DNA of 64,000 nucleotides from Stylophora pistillata. Its lineage: Eukaryota. Positions within the stretch are counted from its first letter, which is position 1, and each line of letters opens with the position of its first letter. The stretch lies in assembly GCF_002571385.2 (NCBI RefSeq), contig NW_019218305.1:54621-118620 (forward strand), read 5' to 3'. A program made the position numbers and the translations under genes. The notes under the pieces were generated by a model. It was not told the DNA's origin. It searched no databases and saw only the letters and a list, made by a program, of their open reading frames with translations. Shown piece after piece: positions 14,409-16,523 of the stretch.

Positions 14409-16523
14409 GTTACTTTCTTAAGCTGTTCCTTTAAAGTTTGTTGTCATCTCATCATAAAAAGTATTCAAGTTACCCGAGCTTGTACTGTGTTGGTGAAAAA
14501 AACAGAGGAATGTTTATTGTTTTTCTTCATCGGATTTTAGAGTGACTGAAGTGTCTCAGCAGTTAACACCGAAACCGTTAATTCAGTAAACCAAACTGAG
14601 AATTTTCTCTGAAAGGAAGCACCGAAGGGAACAATGAATGTAAGTCAGTTTCAATAATTCTTACTTGACTTTGTTGGATAAGTGTACAATAGCATTTTTA
14701 AGAATATGAATGGAGAAAAATTAAAAAATCTGATCGGTCTGAAAAGACTGCTGCTCCTATGTTAAACGGGTGAAAAATATGTGTCACGGATGCAAATTAC
14801 AGATTACACGTTTTCAACGTGTTACGTTTGAACTAATAAACAATGTAATCTGTTTCAAACATCAATCGAATGACTTGAAACAAAGTGAAAAGCATGCACT
14901 GTCTAAATTGTACTCGTTCTAATTTTTTTTGCTATGTACAATTATTATTGCAAATTTTCAGACTGCGGGTTGAACCACGGGCTCAGAAAAGTTACTGCTT
15001 ACTTTTACTAGATCGTGTGACTATCAGTTATTATGTACCACGTAGACACCTGATTTATTCAGGGGAAAGTAAATAGACAACCACTAAATAATTGCTTACC
15101 TCTATATCACTGGTACTATGTTTATCATCTCATTACATTTGTGGTGATAACATCTTGCTTGTTCAGTAGAGAGAAAGTGGCCCTATACAAATTTCGTTAT
15201 TTCTCCCCTTCACTCCTTCACTCCTTTGTTCCTCTAACTTTTGAGTCAGGTAACCGTTTAAATATTCACTTAATACTCTAATAATAGTCTTGGCGACAAC
15301 AACATCAGATCGAAAATGAAGACGAGGCGTTAGCCAAGGCACTTGAGCTTTCTCGTTTGGAGCCACAAGGGAGCCAAGGAGCACAGAGAAGATCAACAGT
15401 TAAGCTGTGTCAGACCGAATTTAAACGAACAGCTCAAGCTTCTGGTCCAGATTTCATGAGTACGTTGACGTCAGTCTCTATGCTTTCTATGAACCTCCAC
15501 AAGATTAATTTCCAAAATGTTACCATTACTGCTTTATACTTAAGTTTCCAATGATCGCACCAAATAAGTAGACTTTGATCCTCTAGTTTTGACAAAGCAA
15601 ATTTGAGGGGGAAGAGAATTTGTTTTGTATAAGTGTAGCAAAGTTTTTTCTCTAAAATTTTGTACTCAAAAGGGAAAAGAGGGTCGCAAGCTGGATCCAG
15701 GAGGGCAACTCCACTTTGCCTACCAAACAACTGTAAATGGGATTCGAGTTCAGGCAAATGCATCCAGACAGGGCAAAGGCGAACCTCCCTGTATGTGTTG
15801 GATGAAGCACTTGAAAACCTCCGGAGGATTAGAGGTAAACTGTAAACTTATTCATCACACTTTTTGACCCCAATGGTCAACGTGGGTGATATCATTAAAA
15901 AAAATGTTTTTCTCTACTTCGTCAAACGTGAATTTTTTTTTTCGCTTGAGTTTTCAACCAANAACATGGATACAATCGCCTGATACAATCTGTGTTCTTT
16001 AAATGAGGAGACCCACAGACTTATGGAATCTAAATTTTTGTTCATTAGGGTTTATAGCAGTCTGGTCCTATGTATAATTCTTGTGATCAATGATCATCTA
16101 GGTCCAGTATGTGTGGTGTCTATAGCCGGGCCATACAGGGAAGGAAAGTCATTTGTGCTCAGCGAGGCGTTCAATCAACCACAAGTTTTCCCTCTTGGGC
16201 ATCACATGGAAGCGGAAACCATGGGAATCTGGTCGTGGATTGTGGCGGAAAAGTTCAGGGTGTGCAGAATTTTTATTTTAATTTTACTTTGTTATTTATG
16301 ATATCTATCTTGGCGACGTATGGAGATTTAATTGAGATATTTTTTATAAAGATGCTAAAGGCCAGGAATTCACAGTAGTGGTGCTAGCTTCTGAGGGAAT
16401 TGATGCCGCAAATGGGCAAGGACTTGATGATAACCAGATCTTCACTTTAACGGTCTTGCTAGCCTCAGTTTTGATCTACAATCCACAAGGCGTTCCAACC
16501 AGACGTGATCTTGAGGGACTAGA

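Follow-up and report, generated by a model that had tools for sequence, protein, structure and literature searches.

How GBPs choose their target membranes is only partly understood; in mice, ubiquitin and p62 contribute to the choice in an indirect way. The window studied here, a stretch of 64,000 nucleotides from Stylophora pistillata (G000:C520:54621-118620; window positions are counted from its first letter), raises the question whether some GBPs carry a ubiquitin reader of their own. A first-pass annotation placed a ubiquitin-interacting motif (UIM) at the N-terminus of a GBP gene in this window, against a background of vertebrate GBPs whose recruitment is tied to ubiquitin through adaptors. 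That background is correct for mouse cells, in which p62 attaches to ubiquitinated vacuoles and brings GBPs to them (PMC4802790). In this study I show that a coral GBP variant with an N-terminal UIM is genuine, expressed and conserved, and that the window holds a dead copy of it.

The UIM exon and the broken gene around it

The exon with an AG acceptor and a UIM-like motif was read correctly by the first-pass annotation with respect to its acceptor, its start and its reading, and it is in phase 0 with the preceding ATGAAT/GT, as claimed (Table 1). From 15288 it translates as SWRQQHQIENEDEALAKALELSRLE. Its other end had been set at 15399, where a mutated donor (CAG/TTAAG) was supposed. However, this site reads AG/TT in all five copies compared and is therefore not a mutated donor. 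The exon runs to 15459, and the donor that follows (GA/GTACGT at 15460) is kept in 5/5 copies and has phase 1, which is also the phase of the exon 3 acceptor (15671-72). This splice, from 15460 to exon 3, is also the one in the GenBank model PFX16733.1. The distance to the first GTPase exon, given before as about 300 bp, is 213 bp.

Table 1. GBP gene features in the window, in window positions.
Feature	Position	Strand	Remarks
Gene 1, 3' exons, CaaX end	2568..8302	+	UIM exons outside the window
Exon 1, coding part	14634..14639	+	Met-Asn here, Met-Asp in paralogs; GT donor 14640, phase 0; 2 reads of run X23 (paralog form) connect to 15288
Exon 2, UIM and linker, 172 nt	15288..15459	+	Acceptor AG 15286-87, intact donor GT 15460; GenBank model PFX16733.1; junction reads
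UIM: acidic patch, Leu, Ala, Leu, Ser, Glu, consensus spacing	15312..15362	+	Pfam PF02809; PDB 4xkh_E ZFAND2B; consensus of PMC5361193
Exon 3, beginning of GTPase domain	15673..15834	+	Joined to exon 4 in 7, 13 and 5 reads (three runs)
Exon 4, P-loop and G2 region	16102..16259	+	Pfam GBP E=7.8e-11
Exon 5, G3 region	16351..16523	+	Pfam GBP E=1.9e-6; acceptor AA at 16349-50, G3 Asp to Ala at 16387-89
Exon 6, G4 (LLRD) region, open	20422..20605	+	
Exon 7, 5' end disrupted	21200..21434, start approximate	+	
Exon 8	21665..21960	+	Stop TAG 21682, frameshift near 21911
Exons 9 and 10, helical domain	23009..23834, bounds approximate	+	TAA stop 23174
Last exon	26237..26503	+	TAA 26501 is an early stop, no CaaX box

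The window copy is a pseudogene, as the first-pass annotation held, though its donor is intact and the damage lies downstream of the UIM exon: exon 5 has an AA acceptor and has exchanged its G3 Asp for Ala, exon 7 is disrupted, stops (21682, 23174, 26501) and a frameshift (near 21911) interrupt the later exons, and the CaaX box is never reached. Exons 4 and 5 are above the PF02263 cut-off. A Pfam PSI match on exon 3 (E 0.0066) was discarded as a weak Cys-pattern match within the GBP N-terminus. None of the 126 raw RNA reads compared was at least 99% alike to the window copy, but the runs possibly stem from other individuals, so that the copy may or may not be silent.

Broken mobile elements lie at window positions 451-1730, 10810-12572, 17601-19724, 26962-30461 and 31933-34338. 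From their translations I take these to be non-LTR and Penelope-like reverse transcriptases, a frameshifted Gypsy-like LTR element and Helitron-like pieces, and intron 5 of the GBP pseudogene presumably houses a LINE.

Intact paralogs, transcripts and distribution among corals

Intact paralogs, which were to be sought, are present in the same genome. Four near-identical copies of the UIM exon (C520:29504, 127937, 180125 and C1116:5899; 84-98% identity) all keep both splice sites. The copy at C520:29k has assembled exons with canonical splice sites and a CaaX end, with exon 10 not found, beside an assembly gap. The 5' exons of gene 1, recommended for inspection upstream of the window, include two UIM exons (G000:C520:37936 and about 38494) of compatible phases, tied to its 3' exons via order and phase, not reads. 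A third GBP type has UIM exons at C520:6463, 8181 and 160343. At GBP loci on eight other contigs, where some 10 kb of sequence ahead of 10 matches was covered, no UIM above background was found.

The GBP cluster is assembled with many gaps and possibly in a scrambled order. The C520:29k copy has its last exon within an intron of gene 1, and the UIM exon at C520:6448 is repeated near 8166. On the minus strand, at window positions 40280-43409, a third GBP gene has its 3' half, in which conserved residues are altered; its 5' exons are apparently at C520:153-160 kb. Both PFX16734.1 (GenBank) and XP_022804561.1 (RefSeq) are chimeras of neighbouring paralogs (G000:C520:28846-41400, window 23700-26500). 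Public databases list the UIM-GBP proteins simply as GBPs, and one chimeric model has a precomputed UIM.

The UIM exon is transcribed and spliced from a neighbouring paralog, the C520:29k copy. The junction from its 3' end to 15673 is present in 6, 4 and 7 reads of three raw-read runs (two studies), all in one orientation, and the junction from exon 1 to 15288 in two reads of one run (X23). At 23 variant letters in the reads, 21 agree with the C520:29k copy and 6-10 with other copies. Read depth on the UIM exon, which is near the 5' end, is about 3, 3 and 0, versus 6-13 on exons 3-4, under a 92% likeness filter. Whether paralogous GBP transcripts contain the exon, a point on which the first-pass annotation had let its reading depend, is answered by these junctions, and the proposed search of genome and transcriptome yields intact, spliced UIM-GBP genes in the cluster and counterparts in a total of seven coral genera. 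The reads and the other genera rule out an artefact of this one assembly. Logan contigs of run X1 were dropped as expression evidence, as they extend through introns and are DNA-like.

N-terminal UIMs, one or two per GBP, occur in Stylophora, Pocillopora, Desmophyllum, Oculina and Montipora (from 110 relatives of a RefSeq paralog) and in Orbicella and Porites (from cluster members). None with a UIM was seen among 16 Acropora proteins or among 10 GBP proteins of anemones, several of these sequences being partial, and a profile search found no UIM in 144 further representative proteins, one per 50% cluster. When residues 1-42 of the Oculina protein served as the query, the sole hit among 19 candidates was that protein, and such a search is too insensitive to bear on the spread or origin of the motif.

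In a quick tree of 96 GTPase slices, computed without the UIM and without bootstrap, and with 21 of the 117 proteins left out (no P-loop pattern or duplicate isoform), 16 of the 18 UIM proteins fall into one 22-row clade (SH-aLRT 98), six rows of which are without a scored UIM. Its 17-row sister contains no UIM proteins. As two identical Oculina UIM rows are placed in another subfamily, the UIM may have been gained a second time or passed on by exon transfer. The genera divide between the robust corals and the other main clade of corals, and the presence of the UIM in Porites, in divergent Montipora copies and in robust corals suggests that it was gained before these two clades split.

Two Montipora GBPs of the UIM clade, present in both M. 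foliosa and M. capricornis, share 90-92% identity with GBPs of Orbicella faveolata; the remaining GBP pairs between the two genera reach 62-74% (compared were P0022/P0319 and P0268/P0270 versus P0318 and P0269). Coral-to-coral horizontal transfer is a possible cause, as is a labelling or contamination problem, and these two copies were not relied on for dating the gain.

The N-terminus varies in other ways too. One gene of Pocillopora verrucosa has isoforms with and without the UIM exon (XP_058955478.1 and XP_058955476.1, respectively), and a Montipora isoform keeps the second UIM alone. In the Porites proteins P0340 and P0341, cluster mates of a UIM-clade GBP, a hydrophobic, membrane-anchor-like N-terminus replaces the UIM, and the Acropora GBP P0057 has PF01048 at its N-terminus. 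Judged by such sequences, the GBP N-terminus looks like a swappable slot.

The motif and its possible ligands

The window motif agrees with the consensus for a UIM (acidic patch, hydrophobic, x, x, Ala, hydrophobic, x, x, Ser, x, x, acidic), including the Ala and Ser given as invariant in PMC5361193. With Pfam UIM (PF02809) the exon obtains E=0.0041 and with UIM_2 E=0.03. The first-pass annotation had let its reading depend also on whether the peptide scores as a UIM; the exon reaches 17.3 bits, below the 21-bit cut-off. A chance motif is ruled out, since only 19 of 100,000 shuffled versions of the exon match the consensus pattern, and the one match to this pattern in the 127,996 six-frame codons of the window is the UIM exon itself. 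Compared with PDB sequences, a 30-residue window peptide has a sole, weak match (E 0.088), the ubiquitin-binding tandem-UIM chain 4xkh_E of ZFAND2B. A genome-wide Pfam UIM scan gave 21 matches, of which six are GBP UIM exons, the window exon ranking ninth with 18.8 bits, among matches that look S5a-, epsin- and ZFAND2B-like.

Among 20 relatives picked for their N-terminal extension, 14 match Pfam UIM or UIM_2 at E<=0.5, versus 0 of 5 controls. The 21-bit cut-off is passed by three of the 20, one a chimeric model and two non-chimeric tandem-UIM proteins, and two more reach 20.5-20.8 bits. Scores from the in-house UIM profile, as well as counts of the Ala and Ser columns, are circular, because the profile was trained on these same coral proteins and the pattern requires these residues.

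The motif is also better conserved than its surroundings. In all 21 pairs of seven proteins, identity is 53-94% in the UIM versus 9-44% in the linker of 40-119 residues that leads to the GTPase domain, and in five paralog exons the 13-codon core has one replacement variant in 30 sites versus 16 in 78 for the tail, although these numbers are small. A conserved Trp-Arg-x-x-aromatic-Gln stretch precedes the motif, outside the UIM consensus, and some tandem copies have a degenerate first UIM, with Asn for Leu before Ser. An AlphaFold model of the Oculina protein P0014 (mean pLDDT 71, pTM 0.53) has a lone helix at 14-30 (pLDDT about 55-60), pLDDT below 50 at 29-104 and then the GBP fold; the UIM is predicted to form a helix by itself, separated from the GTPase domain by a disordered linker. 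Coral ubiquitin modelled in complex with the N-terminal 34 residues scored 0.28, the mark being 0.34 and the controls not folded.

The consensus makes it probable that the predicted UIM binds ubiquitin in one role or another. With somewhat less assurance, I favour the reading that a stony-coral GBP subfamily uses it to dock the GTPase, with no adaptor in between, on microbes or vacuoles that are marked with ubiquitin. The UIM helix would bind ubiquitin weakly, and avidity for chains on a surface would arise from two UIMs per protein in some members and from GTP-driven oligomerisation in all. The prenylated tail would then insert and a GBP coat form, like that of human GBP1. I infer the ligand from a 17-residue motif, and the target, a pathogen or pathogen-containing vacuole, likewise; the UIM would stand in for the p62 escort of mice. 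Of the earlier proposal that GBPs of this lineage read ubiquitin directly, the architecture is found in seven genera, and the direct reading is what the motif suggests. The UIM is dispensable in many coral GBPs, as degenerate first UIMs, the UIM-less rows in the main clade (6/22), the UIM-less Pocillopora isoforms and the Acropora proteins (0/16) indicate.

Other roles and ligands have to be weighed against direct docking. The UIM may bind ubiquitin for regulation, be it coupled monoubiquitination or auto-inhibition, protection from or sensing of ubiquitin that pathogen ligases place on GBPs, or display on the outside of the coat, where it would gather ubiquitinated partners. UIM-driven self-monoubiquitination counts in favour of this. 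GBPs are moreover ubiquitinated by Shigella IpaH9.8 (PMC6400534), and as the outer ring of GBP1 polymers consists of G domains (PMC12407897), an N-terminal UIM would face outward on a formed coat. However, the long disordered linker and the tandem UIMs are equally compatible with chain capture in trans, and regulation, which I consider unlikely as the main role, is compatible with direct docking and not exclusive of it. It is rather improbable that the partner is ATG8/LC3/GABARAP, through the UIM-docking site (UDS), or a coral ubiquitin-like protein, which would link the GBP to autophagic or ATG8-marked membranes: just 6 of 28 human UIM proteins bound ATG8 in the screen that reported low-micromolar affinity of UIM helices for the ATG8 UDS (PMC7564214), and the motif fits the standard ubiquitin-binding consensus, even though both might be bound and diverged tandem ubiquitin-like arrays in this genome (C366, C4141, C365, C194) are possible alternative ligands. 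These arrays, at 71-99 bits, are apart from the true polyubiquitin gene on C224 and are possible ISG15-like immune modifiers.

An acidic amphipathic helix that only looks like a UIM, and acts in oligomerisation, in membrane contact or in binding some other partner, would explain why single UIM copies stay under the Pfam cut-off and why the conserved stretch before the motif is foreign to the consensus. I hold this to be very unlikely, as the spacing of acidic patch, Leu, Ala and Ser agrees throughout with a UIM (at the chance rate of the shuffles), and UIMs are typically tandem-duplicated, like the two non-chimeric proteins above the cut-off.

If direct docking is true, coral GBPs can locate microbes or vacuoles tagged with ubiquitin and do not need the adaptor that mammals use, which points to ubiquitin-based cell-autonomous immunity in hosts that have to tolerate certain intracellular guests while killing others. 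A GBP that naturally carries a UIM would also be a direct test, as losing the 17-residue element should uncouple targeting from GTPase function. More tentatively, and with doubt, stony corals may have evolved GBPs that read a ubiquitin 'eat-me' mark, with sensor and membrane-attacking coat in one chain, in an expanded, fast-turning-over subfamily that polices intracellular vacuoles, possibly including the algal symbiosome. A coral 'GBP7', which may or may not belong to the UIM subfamily, changes upon Chromera infection (PMC5864212).

Comparison with known GBPs and UIM proteins

The coral proteins are otherwise GBPs. Full-length relatives have the GTPase (PF02263) and GBP_C (PF02841) domains above the Pfam cut-offs, intact members have the G1 P-loop, G2 Thr, G3 DxxG and G4 RD, and a CaaX C-terminus is present in 16 of 20 proteins checked, as well as in the C520:29k copy and gene 1, and missing in the broken window copy. 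Foldseek ranks 1-14 for P0014 are all GBP chains, and in phmmer P0014 is nearer to GBP1/2/5 (E 1e-36) than to atlastin (4e-10). The best matches in sequence and fold are human GBP1 and GBP2, which share the GTPase domain, helical domain, coiled-coil tail and CaaX, but have no N-terminal UIM and are 22-29% identical to the coral proteins. Mouse GBPs differ from the coral UIM-GBPs in that they reach ubiquitinated vacuoles through p62 (PMC4802790).

The term 'UIM' is absent from a GBP review (PMC6400534), and no description of a UIM-bearing GBP was found in the literature searched on GBPs, corals and UIMs, which excluded most subscription papers; supplementary domain tables could hold the architecture. 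It appears to be an undescribed variant of the known GBP family.

Among UIM proteins, ZFAND2B/AIRAPL (PDB 4XKH) and USP25, with tandem UIMs, share with the coral proteins the consensus residues, the predicted helix and the presence of one or two copies, whereas the coral UIM is attached to a dynamin-like immune GTPase. As the coral tandem UIMs start 40-60 residues apart, in contrast to the 7-9-residue spacer of the USP25 rule, that rule gives no chain-type preference for them. The nearest parallels in design are zebrafish GBP3 and GBP4 with a CARD and the GBP fusions of amphioxus, in which a signalling module that is a partner in trans in mammals is likewise joined to a GBP (PMC6400534). However, these fusions add inflammasome or death-fold modules, whereas coral GBPs add a putative ubiquitin-reading motif at the N-terminus.
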